Source: an uncultured Gemmatimonadota bacterium (lineage in GTDB: Bacteria > JAAXHH01). Taken from it: a DNA stretch of 64,000 nt. The position numbers and the translations under genes were made by a program. Positions 1 through 58,388 of the stretch are shown here, in pieces (positions within the stretch are counted from its first letter, which is position 1; each line of letters starts with the position of its first letter). The notes below the pieces were generated by a model, which saw only the letters and a list, made by a program, of their open reading frames with translations, searched no databases and had not been told where the DNA came from. The stretch is from NCBI GenBank assembly GCA_951812955.1, contig OX638340.1, positions 1,600,001-1,664,000 of the forward strand, read 5' to 3'.

Positions 1-731
1 CCACCGCGGACGATGGACACGACGAAGAGGCGGATGCGGCCACCGCGGACGATGGGCACGACGAAGAGACGGATACGGCCACTGCGGACGACGAACACGT
101 CCACGATGAGGCGGATGAGGCCACCGCGGACGATGGGCACGACGAGGCGGTGGATTTTTCGATCGAGGATGTCGAAGTCAGGCAGGTGACGTCGTTCTTC
201 GTGGGGATGACCAGCCGCCGGGACGTGCTACAACTGCAGCGCCAGATCAACGATTTCGAGAACGAGCCCATGATGGCCGTGATCCCCGGAGTCGCCCTGA
301 ACGAGATGTGGCAGGGCCTGGGTTACGCCGAGACCGGCCTCCGGCTGGTGACCATCTTCGTCGTGTTGGTAGGGTTACTGGGCATGCTGGTCTCACTCTA
401 CACGTCGCTTAACGAGCGCCGACGGGAAATGGCGATCCTGCGCGCCGTCGGGGCGGGACCCAACCGAATCGTCTCACTGCTGGTGCTCGAGTCGGTGTGC
501 CTGTCCGCGGCGGGAGCCATCGGCGGACTCGCCCTGGTTTACATGTTGCTCTCAGCCGGACAGTCGTTTGTCGAGGCGCAAGTCGGGCTCTACATTCCGA
601 TCCGGCCCCCCGGCTCAATCGAATTCCTCTACCTGGCCGCCGTGGTGACGGCCGGATTCGTGATGGGCTTCGTGCCCGCACTCAAGGCCTACCGCACGGC
701 ACTCCATGACGGACTGTCGGTACGGGTGTAA
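1..731 (+). CDS. ABC transporter permease, FtsX/MacB-like C-terminal region (5' partial; reading frame is open to the left window edge)
   Basis: Frame 3 is open from nt 3 with no stop. Nt 1-144 are an in-frame 36-bp tandem repeat encoding (ATADDGHDEEAD)n. The downstream sequence has FtsX-type TM helices (LVTIFVVLVGLLGMLVSLYTSLNERRREMAILRAVGA...). The track ORF 150..731 starts at an internal Met. Confidence 0.7.
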   Translation, partial: TADDGHDEEADAATADDGHDEETDTATADDEHVHDEADEATADDGHDEAVDFSIEDVEVRQVTSFFVGMTSRRDVLQLQRQINDFENEPMMAVIPGVALNEMWQGLGYAETGLRLVTIFVVLVGLLGMLVSLYTSLNERRREMAILRAVGAGPNRIVSLLVLESVCLSAAGAIGGLALVYMLLSAGQSFVEAQVGLYIPIRPPGSIEFLYLAAVVTAGFVMGFVPALKAYRTALHDGLSVRV

Positions 732-1416: not shown

Positions 1417-1488
1417 TCAGAAGTATCAAAGCCGGTCCTGGTCGGCCGAATATCAGAAGTATCAAAGCCGCTCCTGGTCGGCCGAATA
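1417..1488 (+). repeat. 2 x 36-bp direct tandem repeat (TCAGAAGTATCAAAGCCG[G/C]TCCTGGTCGGCCGAATA) immediately 3' of tRNA-Ser(GCT)
   Basis: Read directly; the two copies differ at one position. Confidence 0.85.
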
Positions 1489-1608
1489 GCGGCATTCACC
1501 GGGCTCCGGCCCGCATCGGAAGCCCCATCCAGGAATACCATCGGGAGCCCTGTACTTTGAATTACCATCGGGAGCCCTATTCTTGAGATTCCATCAGGAG
1601 CGCCATTC

Positions 1609-2037
1609 ATGCAGTACCAGTTGAAGCGAATCGACCCGTGGTCCGCGTGCAAGATTACTTTTCTCATCGCCGGCGTTGTGGGGTTCGTTGTTGGGGCGCT
1701 TTACGCCGTGCTGATCACGATGATGGCGAGTTTCATGGGCATGGTGGGGATGTCCGAAGGCATGCCCGATGAGATGGGCTATATCGTAGGGGCCACAGGC
1801 TTCATCGCGGTCGTAGCCTGGATCGTAATCACCATCCTGTACGCCGTGGTCGGTGCCCTGGTGGTCTCGCTGGCTACCTGGCTGTACAACCTGTTGGCGG
1901 GCGCGATCGGCGGCGTGCAACTGACCTTCGAAGCCTTACCGTCAGTTGTGCCCGCTCCGACTGAAGCGACGACACCCGGTTCCGACACTTCGACCGCGAC
2001 GGGAGACGCCGGCGGTTCAGAACCCCAGGCAACGTAA
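1609..2037 (+). CDS. Small polytopic membrane protein with a Thr/Ser/Gly-rich C-terminal tail (resembles DUF3566-type TM domain); 6 nt upstream of gltX
   Basis: Four predicted TM helices and a low-complexity tail. AGGAG RBS. Probably co-transcribed with gltX. Confidence 0.6.
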   Translation: MQYQLKRIDPWSACKITFLIAGVVGFVVGALYAVLITMMASFMGMVGMSEGMPDEMGYIVGATGFIAVVAWIVITILYAVVGALVVSLATWLYNLLAGAIGGVQLTFEALPSVVPAPTEATTPGSDTSTATGDAGGSEPQAT

Positions 2038-10378: not shown

Positions 10379-11094
10379 TCACCCCGCGGATTGATGTGGA
10401 TCGTTCGGGGCAGGTTCTTCAGGAAGCGCCGCACGAGGGCCATGCCCACGAGGAATCCGCCGATGTGCGCGTACCAGGCCACGCCGTCGCTGCCGATGCC
10501 CAGAATCTGCCGCAGGAACCAGATCCCAAGGATGATGACTGCGGGCACGTGGATAATCTGGATGAAGATGAACAGCAGGATGAAGGTCTTGATGTAGGCC
10601 CGAGGGTACAGGATGAAATAGGCGCCCAGGACGCCCGCGATGGCGCCGCTGGCGCCGATCATGGGAATGGCGGAATCGGGCTCGGAGATCACGTGCACCA
10701 GGGTGGCGCAGAGGCCAGTCAGTATATAGAAGAGCAGGAAGCGGCCCGAACCCATGGCGCTTTCCACGCTGTTGCCGAAGATCCACAGGTATAGCATGTT
10801 GCCGGCGAGATGCATGAAACCCCCGTGAACGAACATGGCCGTGAACAGCGTCAGGGGGAAGGGCACCAGGGCGTCGGGGTAATGCAGGGAGGTACCCGGA
10901 ATGGGAATGACGTCCCGGTCGACGAAACGGGTCAGTTCAAAGGGTATGGCCGCCGTCTTGAAAATGAATATCTGCTCACCCACCGGTCCCAGGACAAACT
11001 GGAATAGAAAGACCGCCGCGTTGGCGGCGAGCAGCGCGTAGGTGATAACGGGCCGGGAGAATGACGGGCTTTCAGCCTGGAGCGGTAGGAGCAT
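10372..11094 (-). CDS. Rhomboid-family intramembrane serine protease
   Basis: Catalytic GASGAIAG (GxSG) and AHIGGF (His) motifs, with 6 TM helices. Confidence 0.9.
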   Translation of the reverse strand: MLLPLQAESPSFSRPVITYALLAANAAVFLFQFVLGPVGEQIFIFKTAAIPFELTRFVDRDVIPIPGTSLHYPDALVPFPLTLFTAMFVHGGFMHLAGNMLYLWIFGNSVESAMGSGRFLLFYILTGLCATLVHVISEPDSAIPMIGASGAIAGVLGAYFILYPRAYIKTFILLFIFIQIIHVPAVIILGIWFLRQILGIGSDGVAWYAHIGGFLVGMALVRRFLKNLPRTIHINPRGEW

Positions 11095-11156
11095 GGGAAG
11101 GAGGTCGGTTCGTTACCGGCGGGACGGGGATCCATCCGGCCGGAAAAGGTTCCGTC

Positions 11157-13139
<1,983 letters not shown>

Positions 13140-33778: not shown

Positions 33779-34639
33779 TCAATCCGCGTAGGCGGCCAAG
33801 CGCCTGCCGTGGCGGGTGTGGCGCAGCTTGTTGATGGCCTTCTGCTTGATCTGGCGGATTCGTTCCCGCGTCAGGCCGAATCGAACCCCGATCTCTTCCA
33901 ACGTGTAGGACCGGTCCGAATTCAGGCCGAAGTAGAGATTCAACACTTCGCTCTCCCGATCGGTCAGGGTCGAAACCGCACGCCGGACCTCGCTCCGCAT
34001 GAGCTCTTCCTGCAATTCTTCGTCCGGCATCTTGCTGTCCTGATCCCGGAGCCGGTCCATCAGCGTGTAGGCATCCTGGTCGCCGATCGGCGCATCCAGG
34101 GATAGCGGCGTGCTCGCCCATTCCGGCAGGGCGGGATGCCGGCCCTTGCCGTAACTCCGCTCCGCGTCTAAACCGGCGCCGGAATCGTCTCCGGCCTGGG
34201 CGCTTTCAGCTTCCCGCTTCTTGATGGTGCGCTCGATCCGGCGCAGTTCCTCTATCTTGTTGACGGGCAATCGGATCAACCGGGCCTGTTCGGCCAGAGC
34301 ATGGAGAATAGCCTGCCGAATCCACCACACGGCGTAGGAGATAAACTTGAATCCCTTCGTCTCATCGAAACGGCGCGCGGCTTTCATCAGGCCGATATTC
34401 CCCTCGCTGATCAGATCGGAAAGGGAGAGACCCTGGTTCTGGTATTGCTTGGCGACCACAACGACGAATCGCAGGTTGGCGTGTACCATGGCCTCGAGGG
34501 CATTCTCGTCGCCATCACGGATTCGGCGGGCCAGTTCCTCCTCATCCGCTGGTGTCAGCAGTTCCGTATCGCCGATCTCTTTCAGGTATACGTCGAGCGA
34601 CTGGTCGTCTCTGATTTGGATCCTCGTGTTCAACTTCAT
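33779..34639 (-). CDS. rpoD: RNA polymerase primary sigma factor, short Bacteroidota-type SigA/RpoD
   Basis: 286 aa. Regions 2-4 are conserved (ANLRFVVVVAKQYQNQGLSLSDLISEGNIGLMKAARRFDETKGFKFISYAVWWIRQ... LTDRESEVLNLYFGL). Length and sequence closely resemble Bacteroides SigA. Confidence 0.8.
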   Translation of the reverse strand: MKLNTRIQIRDDQSLDVYLKEIGDTELLTPADEEELARRIRDGDENALEAMVHANLRFVVVVAKQYQNQGLSLSDLISEGNIGLMKAARRFDETKGFKFISYAVWWIRQAILHALAEQARLIRLPVNKIEELRRIERTIKKREAESAQAGDDSGAGLDAERSYGKGRHPALPEWASTPLSLDAPIGDQDAYTLMDRLRDQDSKMPDEELQEELMRSEVRRAVSTLTDRESEVLNLYFGLNSDRSYTLEEIGVRFGLTRERIRQIKQKAINKLRHTRHGRRLAAYAD

Positions 34640-34725: not shown

Positions 34726-35010
34726 TATCCTAAATGGTCTTACTAATGTAGTCGGATTATTCAATTTTTTCTCGAGTCTTTTCTAATAATCTAACCGTTT
34801 TGCAATCAATGACTTACACTTCTCGTTTAACATTCTTTCGGATGCACACACTCAAACTGGCACGGTCTTTGCAATTACTATGTTGCGGATACCGATTCTG
34901 CCGCTTCGTCCGCGATTCTTAACTAGTGTACGCCGGCGAAGGCCATTCGGTTCCGAAAGACGGCGAAGAGTTTTCGAAGTGTTGCAGTATACACCTAAAG
35001 GAGGAGCATC

Positions 35011-53818: not shown

Positions 53819-55168
53819 ATGACTGCCAACAATAAAAAGAAAACGGTCAACCGCCGGAACTTTCTCGTGCGAGGTGTCGGCGCCCTGGTCGCTCTAATCC
53901 TGGGCACCGGCTGCTCGGACAAAGGCACGGGTCCGGTCGACCCTGTCCCTCCCGAGCCGACGCCGCCCGAGCCGACGCCGCCCGAGCCGACGCCACCTGA
54001 AGATCCGGTCGACGTGATCGTGGTGGGCGCAGGTCTGTCCGGGCTGGTCGCCGCATACGAGTTGGTCCGGGCGGGGCACGATGTCCGGGTTGTGGAAGCA
54101 AGTAACAAAATCGGGGGCCGGGCACAAACGCTGCGCGAGCCCTTCGACGACGGGCTCATCGCCGAAGCCGGTCCGGCACGTATCCCGCCCGACCACGATC
54201 TAACGCTTGGCTACATCGACCACTTCGGCATCGAGACTTCTCCCTTCTATACGCAGGAGGGTGAGTACCTCATCGTCTCCGATCAGGAAAACCGCCGCCG
54301 GGAGACGCCGGAGAGTTTCCTCCGTGGGGGCCGGGACGCGTGGCTCAAGATTCCGGTTGGAACCGATGCCTTGCCTATAGCCTTCGCCGATGCGCTCGGA
54401 GACCGTGTGCGGACCGGCTCGCCGGTGTCAAGGGTGGTCCGGGATGAGACCGGCGTGGTGGCCACCTACGGAATCGGCGACGCGCAGAAACTGAGGGGCA
54501 AACACCTCATCTGCACGGTTCCCCTTCCCGTCATCGACAAGATCGTGTTCGACCCCGTCCTCTCTGAAGCGAAACGAGCGGCCTTCGAAGCCACCTCCTA
54601 CGTGGATGTCACTCGGGTTTATGTCCAGTATGCGCAACGAAGCTGGGAGAGCGGCGGCTTGAACGGATGGGGAGTGGTATTTGAGGAGGGGTACGAGTTC
54701 TGGCATCCCACCTGGAACCAGGGGGGACCTCGGGGTATTCTGATGTCCTACTTGTTCGGAGGCCTGGCGAACGCGGTCGCGGCGATGGATCCCGGCGCCA
54801 TCGTGTCCGACTTCATCAATCGCTTTGATGGCCTGTTCCCCGGCTCGCGCGAGGTTGCGGAACACGGAACCCACTTCGCATGGGAGCACCAGCCCTGGAT
54901 CGGGTCGGCCTTCGCAAGTGGCCGTCCCCTGTTCTCGGAGCACCCTGAATTGGCATCACCCGAGGGGCCCATTCATTTCGCTGGCGAGCACGCATCGGAT
55001 TATCGGGGGTGGATGCAGGGAGCCTTCCAGTCGGGCCTGCGGGCTGCCAAGGAGATCGATGCGACTGTAACAGAGGAGCGCCGCGCAGCCGTGGCAATGT
55101 CGCGGCGGCAGATGGTGCGCCGTATTGCGGGCATCCCGGATGTGCCGGAATGGTTGTTGTTGCCCTGA
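53819..55168 (+). CDS. Flavin-dependent amine oxidase family protein, Tat-secreted lipoprotein with (PEPTPP)3 linker
   Basis: Tat motif NRRNFLVRG and lipobox LGTGCSD. FAD-binding [18 protein letters not shown]-terminal amine-oxidase region. Confidence 0.85.
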
Positions 55169-55416: not shown

Positions 55417-56268
55417 ATGTTCACCCCGGAACAAATCGATCATTACAACCGCGAAGGATACGTCGTCTACCCCGATTTCATTTCCGGGGATGACCTGTCC
55501 AGGCTGCAGGCGGAAATAGATCGGGTATCGAAAGGAAACACGAAGGCAAGCCACGACGCCTCGCGCATGGAAATGGAGCCGAATCAGTCACCGGACGGCT
55601 CGCTTGTGCGCCGCATCTACGAACCGTGTACTTTCTATCAACCCTACAGGGACTTCTCCGAGTCTACTGCGTTGCTGGACTGCGTCGAACAGCTTTTTGG
55701 ACCGAACCTGCTCTTCCACTACAGCAAGATCAACATGAAGCCGCAGAACATCGGGTCCGTCGTGGAGTGGCACCAGGACCTGTCCTACTACCCGCTGACC
55801 AACCGCGATTCGGTGTCCATTCTATTCTACCTCGACGACACGAACGAGGAAAACGGCTGCCTGAAGGTCATTCCTCGGCGCCACACCGCTCCCCTGATGA
55901 GCCACAGTACGGAGGGGTTCTTTCGGGGCAAGGTCACGGAGGAAGTGGACGATGCCGATGCCGATGCCGTGCTGCTGGAGGGCTCCGGGGGCACGGCGAT
56001 TTTCATGAGCGCCATGACGCCTCACGCGTCGGCCATCAACTCGTCGGACCGGCCGCGTAAGACGCTCATCCTCAGCTATCGCGCGGCCGACGCCTTCCCC
56101 ATCCACTGCGGGGTCATGTCGGACAAGGTCGAAGCGCACAGCCGGCTGGTCCGCGGCGAACGGGCGTCACAGGCCCGTTTTACCATGACCGATTTCCCCA
56201 TACCGCGTTATGAAGACGAGGTCGCGTCGCTGTACGATTTGCAGGAGCGGTCGCGGAAGTCGGCGTAG
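55417..56268 (+). CDS. PhyH-family Fe(II)/2OG dioxygenase, paralog 3
   Basis: MFTPEQIDHYNREGYVVYPDF, EWHQD (HxD), and a distal His in MTPHAS. Confidence 0.8.
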   Translation: MFTPEQIDHYNREGYVVYPDFISGDDLSRLQAEIDRVSKGNTKASHDASRMEMEPNQSPDGSLVRRIYEPCTFYQPYRDFSESTALLDCVEQLFGPNLLFHYSKINMKPQNIGSVVEWHQDLSYYPLTNRDSVSILFYLDDTNEENGCLKVIPRRHTAPLMSHSTEGFFRGKVTEEVDDADADAVLLEGSGGTAIFMSAMTPHASAINSSDRPRKTLILSYRAADAFPIHCGVMSDKVEAHSRLVRGERASQARFTMTDFPIPRYEDEVASLYDLQERSRKSA

Positions 56269-56418
56269 AGGTGGAGGCGGCGCAGCATAACAACAAACTC
56301 GCAGTTATTACCCTCGCAGATCATACCCAGCGTATTTAGCCCAGCCAGAAAATGAAAACGCCTCGGAGACTTTCGTAGTCACCGGGGCGTCTTTCATATT
56401 CGGATTTTCAGTACTGAT

Positions 56419-56787
56419 TTACTGCTTCATGCCAGACGGTGAACTATCTTCCGTTTTTACATCGGATTCGTACTTAAAATATCCACTTATCACATCAATC
56501 TTAGTCTCTAACCTATCCATCTTCGTCTCTACCCGGTCAATCTTGTCTTCCAACTTAGTCTCTACCCGGTCAATTTTAGTCTCTACCCGGGCGATCTTGT
56601 CTACCAACTTCGTCTCTACCCGGTCAATCTTGTCTTCCAACTTAATCTCTACCCGGTCAATCTTGTCTTCCAATCTCGACAGTTGATCCCGTGTGCCGGA
56701 CTCTACGAATACATACACAGCAACACAGCCCGTTATCACGGCGGCTTTCATGACTACGTTCATCCAGGATTTCCTGGCCAATTTCAA
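56419..56787 (-). CDS. Small membrane-anchored protein made of 11-residue repeats (KLEDKIDRVET)n
   Basis: N-terminal TM segment (VVMKAAVITGCVAVYVFV) followed by about 6 hendecad repeats. The DNA carries matching 33-bp tandem repeats at 56495-56680. The locus GC is locally low. Confidence 0.6.
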   Translation of the reverse strand: MKLARKSWMNVVMKAAVITGCVAVYVFVESGTRDQLSRLEDKIDRVEIKLEDKIDRVETKLVDKIARVETKIDRVETKLEDKIDRVETKMDRLETKIDVISGYFKYESDVKTEDSSPSGMKQ

Positions 56788-56891
56788 CCTCCCTCGAAAT
56801 CAACCTGTGGTGGATGTCATCAGTACCTGTAGTCATTAGTCAACGTTAGTCTACAAATATCGTATTTAACTTTGATTATTCGCCCGCAGTC

Positions 56892-58388
56892 TCAGGGCAA
56901 ATCCGTGCTCCCCATGAGGTAGCGGTCCACCTCACGGGCGGCGCCCCGGCCTTCGTAGATGGCCCAGACCACCAGGCTCTGACCGCGACGGGCGTCGCCG
57001 GCCGCGAAAACGTTCTCGACGTCGGTGGCATACTTCCCAAACTCGGCCTGGGCGTTTGACCGGCCGTCCCGCGCTACTTCGAGCTGCTCGATCACCGTAT
57101 CCTCGGGACCCGAGAATCCCATAGCCAGCAGAACCAGGTCGGCGGGCCATTCCTGCTCCGTGCCCTTCTTGGGGCTGAAGGGCGCCCCGTTGCTGGGTGC
57201 CGACCAGTCCAGATCGATGGTGCGCAGGGCCTTGATTTTGCCATGCCCGTCGTCGATGAATTCAACGGTGCTGGTGTCGTAACGCCGCGGGTCGTCGCCG
57301 AAGAGGACCTTGCCTTCTTCCTGGCCGTAGTCGAGCTTGTAGACTACCGGCCACTCGGGCCAGGGGTTGCCCGGTGCGCGCTCGGGTGGCGGTTTAGGGA
57401 TGACGTCGAACTGGCTGATCGTCTTGCATCCGTGGCGGATGGCCGTGCCCACGCAGTCGGTCCCCGTATCGCCGCCGCCGAGGACGATCGTGTGCTTGTC
57501 CTTCGCCGAGATGTAATTGCCGTCCGCATGTCCGGAATCCAGCAGGCTTTTCGTGTTGGCGTGGAGGAACTCCATGGCGAAATGGACGCCGTCCAGTCCG
57601 CGTCCCGGCGCGTTCCGCACGAAATCGTTGGGCTTGGTGGCCCCGGTGCAGATGACCACCGCGTCATTTTCGTTCTTCAGGTCTTCGGCGGGGATGTCCT
57701 TGCCGATCTCCACGCCCGTTACGAACTCGACGCCCTCGGCCGTCATCTGGTCGAGGCGGCGCTGGACGACCTTCTCCTTATCGAGTTTCATGTTCGGGAT
57801 GCCATACATCAGCAGGCCGCCGGGCCGGTCGGACCGTTCGTAGACTTTCACGCTGTGTCCAGCGCGGTTGAGCTGTGCGGCACAGGCCAGGCCCGATGGA
57901 CCTGAACCTATGACGGCGACCTTCCTGCCGGTCCGTTCCGGGGGCGGCTCTGGCTGGATCCAGCCTTCTTCGAAACCCCGGTCCACGATGGCGCACTCGA
58001 TGGTCTTGATGGTCACCGGGTCGGCGTTGATACCCAGGACGCAGGATCCCTCGCAGGGCGCGGGGCAGACGCGTCCGGTGAACTCGGGGAAATTGTTGGT
58101 CTTGTGGAGCTGCTGGAGGGCTTCTTTCCAGTGGTTCCGGTATACCAGGTCGTTCCAGTCGGGGATGAGGTTGTGCAGAGGGCAGCCCGATGCGCCAGGG
58201 CCCTTGCCCATAGGCGCCCCGGTGTGGCAGAAGGGGATGCCGCAATCCATGCAGCGCGCGCCCTGCTCCCGCAGCGAATCATCCGCCATGGGCAGGACGA
58301 ATTCTTCCCAGTCTCCTACGCGTTCTACGGGGTCCCTGTAACCTGCCGTACCCCGTGCAAACTCCATGAAACCTGTGGTTTTACCCAT
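56892..58388 (-). CDS. gltD: Glutamate synthase (NADPH) small subunit
   Basis: Fe-S Cys cluster (CMDCGIPFC...CPLHN), FAD/NAD(P) Rossmann VAVIGSGPSGLACAAQL. Confidence 0.95.
   Translation of the reverse strand: MGKTTGFMEFARGTAGYRDPVERVGDWEEFVLPMADDSLREQGARCMDCGIPFCHTGAPMGKGPGASGCPLHNLIPDWNDLVYRNHWKEALQQLHKTNNFPEFTGRVCPAPCEGSCVLGINADPVTIKTIECAIVDRGFEEGWIQPEPPPERTGRKVAVIGSGPSGLACAAQLNRAGHSVKVYERSDRPGGLLMYGIPNMKLDKEKVVQRRLDQMTAEGVEFVTGVEIGKDIPAEDLKNENDAVVICTGATKPNDFVRNAPGRGLDGVHFAMEFLHANTKSLLDSGHADGNYISAKDKHTIVLGGGDTGTDCVGTAIRHGCKTISQFDVIPKPPPERAPGNPWPEWPVVYKLDYGQEEGKVLFGDDPRRYDTSTVEFIDDGHGKIKALRTIDLDWSAPSNGAPFSPKKGTEQEWPADLVLLAMGFSGPEDTVIEQLEVARDGRSNAQAEFGKYATDVENVFAAGDARRGQSLVVWAIYEGRGAAREVDRYLMGSTDLP

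Follow-up and report, generated by a model that had tools for sequence, protein, structure and literature searches.

The closest sequence relatives of the small protein described here are the Bdr proteins of Borrelia, which carry 11-residue KID repeats. These are inner-membrane-associated proteins (PMC10016077), and their function is unknown (PMC10016077, PMC3303823). A second point of reference, for how such a protein might work, is Lpp, a parallel trimeric coiled coil whose length sets periplasmic distance, and in which an altered length changes both periplasm size and cross-envelope signalling (PMC5736177, PMC8824477). The subject of this report is a gene for a 120-residue product, encoded beside gltD on the reverse strand of a 64,000-nucleotide stretch of DNA (contig OX638340.1, positions 1,600,001 to 1,664,000, assembly GCA_951812955.1) from an uncultured Gemmatimonadota bacterium; this whole stretch is called the window below, and positions are counted from its first nucleotide. 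The gene belongs to an uncharacterised, lineage-restricted paralogous family. Judged from their sequences, its members resemble the Bdr/KID-repeat proteins and are best seen as chromosomal look-alikes of these with inverted topology. We hypothesize that the product of the window gene is a coiled-coil stalk that is anchored in the inner membrane, can evolve in length and bears a conserved tip. What this explanation says of structure and evolution we hold with high confidence; the statement as a whole, with the location and role that we assign to the protein, is tentative, and we favour it while stopping short of calling it probable.

As a preliminary description of this DNA had reported, a minus-strand open reading frame (ORF) spans 56419..56787. 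Its start is here moved to the second TTG, at 56781, the likely point of translation initiation because a GGAGG lies 6 nt upstream and an ortholog (L011) carries ATG at the same codon; the first TTG abuts the GGAGG without a spacer. The public annotation (P0001) gives the identical 120 residues, which are laid out as MARKSWMNVVMKAAVITGCVAVYVFVESGTRDQLS-[repeats]-YFKYESDVKTEDSSPSGMKQ. The protein combines a transmembrane (TM) segment with a single long helix. Residues 6-26 are its sole hydrophobic segment, with a 19-residue Kyte-Doolittle mean of 1.93 at residues 8-26, in the TM range, which agrees with the earlier account of a small TM-anchored protein built of amphipathic repeats. This segment is helical in the AlphaFold2 model and is one of the best-conserved stretches in the family, with A14 and Y23 invariant and K12 and L15 almost invariant. 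Given the family alignment, AlphaFold2 returned one helix over residues 3-111, with a per-residue confidence (pLDDT) above 90 at residues 50-90, 62 at residues 101-110 and 46 at residues 111-120 (below 50 at 112-114 and 116-120).

The helix is repetitive in a mixed 7/11 register. By codon layout the units follow one another as 11, 11, 11, 7, 11, 7 and 7 residues (RLEDKIDRVEI, KLEDKIDRVET, KLVDKIARVET, KIDRVET, KLEDKIDRVET, KMDRLET and KIDVISG), and residue identity peaks at lags of 11, 18 (7+11) and 29. The 11-residue units of the preliminary description are therefore present, not as about six hendecads, however, but as four hendecads and three heptads; nor are the underlying 33-bp DNA repeats perfect, as it had stated, since 33- and 21-bp units occur together and the copies are 80-90% alike. 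Tandem Repeats Finder (TRF) gave periods of 33, 21 and 54 at these match levels, with scores of 64-181, far above chance. Apolar residues recur with a periodicity of 3.6, which was equally strong in 0 of 1000 shuffled sequences. The array runs into a C-terminal signature with the consensus DRVETK[IV]DE[VI]xGY[LF]K[YF], which recurs in paralogs at other loci; in the window protein the tip-motif segment before the tail reads DRVETKVDEVRGYLKF. The tails themselves vary, with ..P[PS]xx[DG]xxK[EQ] a frequent ending.

Within the heptads, isoleucine occupies position a, valine d, glutamate e and lysine g. An I/V core with E at e and K at g is the textbook pattern of a parallel homo-oligomer, and beta-branched residues at both core positions favour trimers (Harbury rules); the protein probably forms a parallel coiled coil, as a trimer. 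The best profile matches among solved structures were trimeric GCN4-pII adaptors and trimeric autotransporter stalks, at weak E-values, and a sequence search of solved structures with the family profile found coiled-coil adaptors only and no homolog. On an ideal helix the apolar seam shifts by +20 degrees per hendecad and by -20 degrees per heptad, and the 4:3 mix of hendecads and heptads would therefore give an almost straight bundle. At 1.5 Å each, the ~76 residues past the membrane correspond to ~11 nm, within a family range of ~4.5 to 14 nm.

A word-indexed search of 5.8 billion proteins returned 60 homologs at E<=1e-3, 68-176 residues long, that share a basic N-terminus followed by Trp, a hydrophobic helix, a juxtamembrane motif (E(S/T)GTRDxLSR(L/M)EDKIDRVE) and the C-terminal signature with its variable tail. 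In a scan of one genome per species, 41 loci fell in ~15 metagenome-assembled genomes (MAGs) labelled Candidatus Latescibacterota or Gemmatimonadetes, and the bin names of several of these suggest an origin in sponge or coral metagenomes. A profile search of 1.84 billion representatives found about a dozen full-length family clusters only, the remaining matches being unrelated proteins with runs of KxDRxE heptads. No Pfam, NCBIfam or PHROG model matched at threshold, the sub-threshold matches being coiled-coil noise (e.g. YwqH, DUF7310, XhlA, Csm3). Genomes hold 3-5 paralogs each (OZ252103.1, for example, has L009, L023, L027 and L034); no second family copy occurs within the 64-kb window. With X as the family gene, the neighbourhoods of the paralog groups, different from group to group and conserved within each, are gltBD-X-PhyH, AcrB-PhyH-X-NAGLU, RidA-X-CxxCxxCC-SelA-SelD, and one with a FAD-oxidoreductase gene upstream of X.

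Between its constant ends the stalk changes length in steps of 7 and 11 residues. Counted from GTRD to DEVxGY it spans 16-78 residues in 52 members, every one of which differs from the shortest form by 7a+11b, and orthologs at one locus alone cover 34-78 residues. Unit flavours follow lineage (KLEDKIDRVET in the window; KLTARIDRVET, RLEARILAVED and DRIERVE elsewhere), and two members (P0033 and P0038) are all-heptad. Units within a gene are more alike than they are to the units of orthologs, which argues for concerted evolution. A close strain, represented by two independent assemblies, has lost exactly 33 bp in frame, so that units 2 and 3 are fused, while its flanks share 92-98% identity with the window. 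With this allele one 33-bp unit shorter, recent turnover of the repeats is demonstrated directly, and the recent expansion proposed in the preliminary description is supported. Another member (L012 6001..6444) has its C-terminal signature tandemly duplicated, with KVDEVRGYLKINTDVA present twice.

We propose that the window protein is a bitopic inner-membrane protein whose five-residue basic N-terminus would be cytoplasmic and whose residues 6-26 would cross the membrane. The remainder would form one unbroken ~85-residue alpha-helix of KID-type units, [KR]IDRVETKLxx (11 residues) and [KR]IDRVET (7 residues), closing in the conserved tip motif and then a floppy Ser/Pro/acidic tail. A narrow I/V/L seam, with K at g and E at e, would zip several chains together in parallel as a coiled coil, most likely trimeric, and the stalk of the window allele would project ~11 nm, most likely into the periplasm. 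Whole 33- or 21-bp units would be gained or lost by unequal recombination or slippage, shifting the length and keeping the helical register, and the cell would hold a set of anchored stalks of unequal lengths with the same tip motif. The role may then be that of a spacer or tether like Lpp, TolA or i-spanins, rather than of an enzyme or lipid coat; of the functions offered in the preliminary description, it is the coiled-coil spacer that fits the data best.

Topology, oligomeric state and the spacer or tether role are the parts of this proposal that we infer. The host has a periplasm, since genes for Omp85 and LptD in related loci mark it as a diderm. Net charge averages +1.3 on the N-terminal and -0.6 on the C-terminal side of the membrane helix, and in 52 of the 60 members it is higher on the N-terminal side, so that an arrangement with the N-terminus inside and the C-terminus outside (N-in/C-out), the stalk being periplasmic, is probable. 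Several observations weigh against the stalk hypothesis. The density of K+R is equal on the two sides (0.19 and 0.21), leaving the charge-difference rule as the sole guide to topology; the Bdr proteins carry their repeat on the other side of the anchor; conservation of the TM and juxtamembrane segments equals or exceeds that of the tip, and the business end could accordingly lie in the membrane, with the coil merely oligomerising; and no partner gene is common to the family, the neighbours differing from one paralog group to the next, which leaves the tip without a candidate ligand.

The comparison with Lpp concerns how the protein might work and nothing more. Lpp is a short, N-terminally membrane-anchored single coil, as the window protein would be, but it is an outer-membrane lipoprotein and has no sequence similarity to the window protein. 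A lipoprotein reading of the ITGC in the TM segment was considered and rejected: homologs have G, S or V in place of the Cys, so that there is no lipobox with an invariant Cys. Many family tails, though not all, end in ..K, ..KE or ..KQ, to be compared with the C-terminal Lys by which Lpp is joined to peptidoglycan.

The likeness to Bdr is closer and includes sequence. By tblastn against 72,556 plasmids the window protein matched 381 records, 352 of them from Borrelia or Borreliella, and among the plasmid matches listed nearly all rows fall under genes for a 'Bdr family repetitive protein'. BLASTP against the Bdr of B31 cp32-3 gave 47% identity over 77 residues, hendecads and heptads being in register, and between the Bdr units (KIDNVEKNLNx, KIDNLDS) and those of the family ([RK]IDRVETKL[EST][DA], [RK][IL]DR[VL]E[TD]) 6 of 11 consensus positions are identical, all three core residues included. 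Both are small, membrane-associated proteins with multi-copy paralogs and a helix of 11- and 7-residue units, and Bdr repeat number varies between strains (PMC3303823), as the stalk does here in its 16-78 residues and its 33-bp polymorphism. They differ in that the Bdr anchor is a C-terminal hydrophobic segment whereas that of the present family is N-terminal, and in that Bdr has a conserved N-terminal domain of ~47 residues (Bdr_N) that the family lacks. A spirochete carries the Bdr genes, on linear plasmids and on cp32 prophage plasmids, whereas the present genes occupy conserved chromosomal loci in a phylum unrelated to it, and the C-terminal GY(L/F)K(Y/F) signature is the family's own.

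Profile models draw the same line. The Pfam KID model (PF02524, cut-off 20.8 bits) scored 83.9 bits on a Bdr control and appeared neither among the best 25 matches to the window protein (E up to 0.034) nor among the 25 Pfam families with the most widespread matches in a set of 25 members. The model of the Bdr N-terminal domain (NCBIfam NF040500 and relatives) gave Bdr 91.3 bits and was absent among the best 25 NCBIfam matches to the window protein, which has only five residues before its TM helix. Membership of the Bdr family fails on the KID model, the N-domain, the end that is anchored and the chromosomal location; the repeats may resemble each other through shared descent or through convergence.

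A rival reading has the opposite orientation: the N-terminus would be external, and the repeat helix, cytoplasmic and running along the membrane or close to it, would serve as an oligomeric scaffold or as a platform for regulation. Such a placement is plausible for the tail-anchored Bdr of Borrelia, itself inner-membrane associated (PMC10016077), and the reading draws on the shared repeat, on the predominance of bdr genes among the plasmid matches and on the equal density of K+R on the two sides of the anchor. It must be set against the two adjacent basic residues that immediately precede the helix in almost every member, the net-charge rule that favours N-in in 52 of 60, the missing Bdr N-domain and the anchor at the opposite end; the topology and function of Bdr are, moreover, themselves unsettled. 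We regard a cytoplasmic scaffold as rather unlikely.

Unlikely, too, in our estimation, is a reading that makes the membrane segment the active part, although it takes up one of the objections raised above. The TM and juxtamembrane segment (KAALITG..YVFVE(S/T)GTRD) would then bind and tune a larger membrane protein, while the coil would only oligomerise and drift in length near-neutrally. This would agree with the invariant and nearly invariant residues already named, to which R31 may be added among the latter, and with the spread of stalk lengths among orthologs at one locus, which weak constraint predicts. Yet the tip motif is equally conserved in paralog groups whose TM segments differ, the 7/11 register is kept in every length change, and no conserved neighbouring membrane-protein gene accompanies the family.

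The preliminary description had taken 11-residue amphipathic repeats as a hallmark of lipid-surface binding, after apolipoproteins, alpha-synuclein and group 3 late embryogenesis abundant (LEA) proteins, and had suggested a part for an anchored version in membrane stress or in protection from desiccation; on this reading the helix would lie on the lipid surface and protect the membrane in osmotic or desiccation stress. The 11-residue periodicity of an amphipathic helix is indeed common to apolipoproteins A1/A4/E, alpha-synuclein, group 3 LEA proteins and the window protein, the hydrophobic moment of the stalk is high (mean 0.47), sub-threshold matches to the Pfam Apolipoprotein model occur in 23 of 25 members (best E 1.2e-9), and some Bdr genes are automatically annotated as 'apolipoprotein A1/A4/E family'. 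The helix nonetheless departs from the 11-mers of apolipoproteins or LEA proteins. Apolar residues take just 3 of the 11 positions (L, I, V; spacing 4-3-4), forming a narrow seam of bulky beta-branched residues or Leu, without an Ala/Gly/Thr-rich face; 54% of stalk residues are charged, with a net charge of ~0, and the K at g and E at e form the salt-bridge pattern typical of coiled coils. The interspersed heptads, and the two members made of heptads throughout, break the 11/3 phase, and the window protein scores 17.8 bits against the PF01442 gathering cut-off of 90. A HeliQuest-type discriminant averaged 0.29 over the stalk and did not separate it from the alpha-synuclein control, which was also low, at 0.44. 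The other results do not support the claim of a lipid-binding hallmark, and a lipid coat now seems improbable.

Descent from a phage lysis or exclusion protein (XhlA-, holin- or i-spanin-like), since domesticated in the chromosome, is more improbable still. XhlA is the most consistent sub-threshold Pfam match, present in 25 of 25 members (best E 6e-7), codon usage is atypical, and a similar coil with a TM helix is found in a Mannheimia phage, a Campylobacter plasmid and an IMG/VR contig. XhlA and the i-spanins have in common with the window protein a single TM helix and a coiled coil of similar composition, and the i-spanins, N-in/C-out with a periplasmic coil, have a compatible architecture. 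However, the XhlA match (PF10779) reaches 22.3 bits against a gathering threshold of 34.7 and aligns profile positions 2-44, the coil, only, and the TM helix of XhlA is C-terminal where that of the window protein is N-terminal. The family has no lysis cassette, o-spanin or phage context: no phage genes lie nearby (the neighbours being gltD/PhyH, RidA/SelA or NAGLU), neither a lipoprotein partner nor an endolysin is adjacent, the chromosomal synteny is old, and searches of 2.9 million viral contigs and of 50,697 phage records yielded no true member of the family. The mobile-element hypothetical proteins themselves carry KID-like 7/11 coils (AKIDKVEAKIDKVEASLNAKIDKVD; DRIDRVETKIDE) with a single TM helix at either end; they are L054 2531..2938 (Campylobacter coli plasmid pCC001), L056 3450..3755 (the IMG/VR contig) and L055 2288..2773 (Mannheimia phage vB_MhS_535AP2), the last downstream of cI.

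That there is no gene here at all, the repeat being an assembly artefact or the opposite-strand ORF the genuine one, has a negligible likelihood, since against a repeat that is open over much of its length in antisense frames stand 60 homologs in which the ends are conserved, as are the start position and the ribosome-binding site (RBS), indels solely of whole 21- or 33-bp units, related alleles in independent assemblies, and antisense open stretches of unequal extent between orthologs. The small gene is real. An assembly artefact, raised earlier as a way for the observation to be wrong, is unlikely because in both assemblies of the close strain the allele departs from that of the window by one 33-bp unit exactly, between flanks of 92-98% identity. 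The other such possibility, that the ORF at 56429..56686 on the opposite strand is the real gene, was rejected on ortholog comparison: the antisense frames stay open because the sense codons TTA, CTA and TCA are rare, their extent varies among all orthologs, and the ORF is a by-product. The sense frame alone has a conserved TM helix, heptad/hendecad periodicity, an RBS and conserved ends. Substitutions among orthologs number 83, 25 and 106 at codon positions 1, 2 and 3, counts that support coding and alone cannot separate the sense frame from a codon-aligned antisense frame.

The gene lies directly downstream of gltD (56892..58388, minus strand), on the same strand, and relatives whose DNA has 82-89% identity to the window share the gene order gltB-gltD-X-PhyH-amine oxidase. 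As first described, its tandem repeats (arrays at 56482..56676) occupy a low-GC pocket beside gltD, with a local GC of 0.42-0.48 against 0.62-0.67 in the flanks. The gene itself has a GC of 0.46 and a third-position GC (GC3) of 0.58, while most long ORFs of the window have values of ~0.62-0.64 and ~0.8. Amino-acid composition together with window codon usage predicts a GC of 0.536; composition thus accounts for about half of the deficit and codon choice for the remainder, the small gene preferring GTA, ATT and TTG. The orthologs are all GC-poor (0.46-0.54, against flanks of 0.62-0.67). Both the locus order and the low GC being conserved, and the viral collections holding no true member, a recent foreign insertion is rejected, and the foreign origin suggested in the preliminary description is not supported: the low GC is a property of the gene, which has long been resident at its locus.

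PhyH adjoins the small gene in two paralog groups (window 55417..56268, plus strand; L008 6081..6875); the two genes converge in one of these groups and diverge in the other, and coincidence or an old duplication probably accounts for the adjacency. In one ortholog locus (L001 8488..10881) three ORF fragments of a Transposase_mut insertion sequence lie between the small gene and PhyH, which shows this intergenic spot to tolerate insertions.

Upstream of the gene, a block of ~85 nt that includes the RBS is conserved in orthologs and contains a bipartite motif ~50 nt before the start codon, similar in close orthologs. A matching pattern, CGA[GT]A-N16-18-GACT[AC], precedes paralogs in several syntenic groups (e.g. 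L004, L008, L014, L018-20, L028, L031, L036-39, L042-44, L047 and L048), with the fuller form TACGAGA-N16-18-CCGACTAA, and 48 sites occur in 672 kb of related DNA, against ~10 in shuffles. This shared motif looks like a putative promoter. A scan for consensus promoters and terminators returned nothing, and the hairpin downstream of the gene was found by folding instead (ViennaRNA; -21.3 kcal/mol on the minus strand, -30.7 on the plus strand, with a U-run after it); a similar hairpin occurs in L011 and a partial one in L002. Rfam models found nothing in 56200..57000. The features of the locus are collected in Table 1.

Table 1. Features of the small gene and its flanks, in window coordinates.
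Feature	Position	Strand	Basis or remark
Coding sequence, 120 residues	56419..56781	-	TTG start 56779..56781, TAA stop 56419..56421
Shine-Dalgarno sequence GGAGG	56788..56792	-	6 nt before the TTG start; largely kept in orthologs
Promoter-like bipartite motif ACGATA-N16-GACTA	56837..56863	-	Within conserved upstream block ~56782..56866; ortholog alignment
TM helix, residues ~6-26 (WMNVVMKAAVITGCVAVYVFV), after basic N-terminus MARKS	56704..56766	-	Kyte-Doolittle, conservation, AlphaFold2
Repeat array, predicted coiled-coil stalk, residues 36-100; four 33-bp (11-residue) and three 21-bp (7-residue) units	56482..56676	-	TRF, codon layout
C-terminal family signature (DRLETKIDVISGYFKY), overlapping the last two units	56470..56517	-	D89, R90, T93, D96 and Y101 invariant or nearly so (alignments A1, A2)
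Variable tail, partly disordered, Ser/Pro/acidic-rich (ESDVKTEDSSPSGMKQ)	56422..56469	-	pLDDT, homolog tails
Terminator-like hairpin, then UUUUCAUUUUC; tail-to-tail with the convergent PhyH gene	56348..56394	-	ViennaRNA

The promoter-like motif is not confined to the family. A second copy in the window, at 34749..34774 (minus strand), lies ~110 nt upstream of the ATG of a sigma-70 gene (33779..34639, minus strand), whose 286-residue product is RpoD/RpoS-like and short, with RpoD C-terminal regions as its best NCBIfam matches. In related DNA the motif also stands before further small ORFs, apparently unrelated, in which a coiled coil is joined to one TM helix (L013 ~5434; L025 and L032, both 71-residue ORFs; L046 ~5328, a 50-residue ORF; L012 ~6561; L005 ~3706), some of them C-terminally anchored, as XhlA is. 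Its distribution raises the possibility that a set of small membrane coiled-coil proteins is regulated together.

Other repetitive sequences were noted in the same material. Further small repeat proteins in related genomes (L005 11121..11498; L004 10462..10740 and 11003..11236) include one with an N-terminal TM helix and about eight QRFNSID-type heptads and another of the KMDRRLxYLEN type. In the window, the amine-oxidase-like gene (53819..55168, plus strand), which begins with a twin-arginine-like RRNFL and a lipobox-like LGTGC, contains a perfect 15-bp tandem repeat at 53951..53994 that encodes a linker of three PEPTP units. Close to its beginning the window has additional tandem repeats (1..145, 1417..1488 and 1514..1619), of 39 bp in 3.6 copies, 36 bp in two copies (97% match) and 26-27 bp in 2.5-4 copies.

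An anchor joined to a coil of adjustable length is a natural molecular ruler, and Lpp demonstrates that such lengths matter for envelope architecture and signalling. The present family shows the rule unusually clearly, in quanta of 7 and 11 residues over a five-fold range, with both ends constant and one change caught between near-identical strains, and it is currently captured by no Pfam, NCBIfam or PHROG model. It is tempting to speculate that its members are co-regulated inner-membrane trimeric coiled-coil 'rulers', with one promoter type (CGAGA-N16-18-CCGACTA), one tip motif and a recombination-tuned 7/11 repeat of KID type, that set or sense envelope distances, an idea that we offer as a doubtful one. 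The family is the first clear Bdr/KID-repeat look-alike outside the spirochetes, with another membrane orientation, and this narrows ideas on the role of the repeat itself to self-association rather than anything specific to Borrelia. Should the 'rulers' prove true, they would be a chromosomal, topologically inverted counterpart of Bdr and, by a comparison across phyla, would help to find what Bdr does, a question without an answer since the 1990s.

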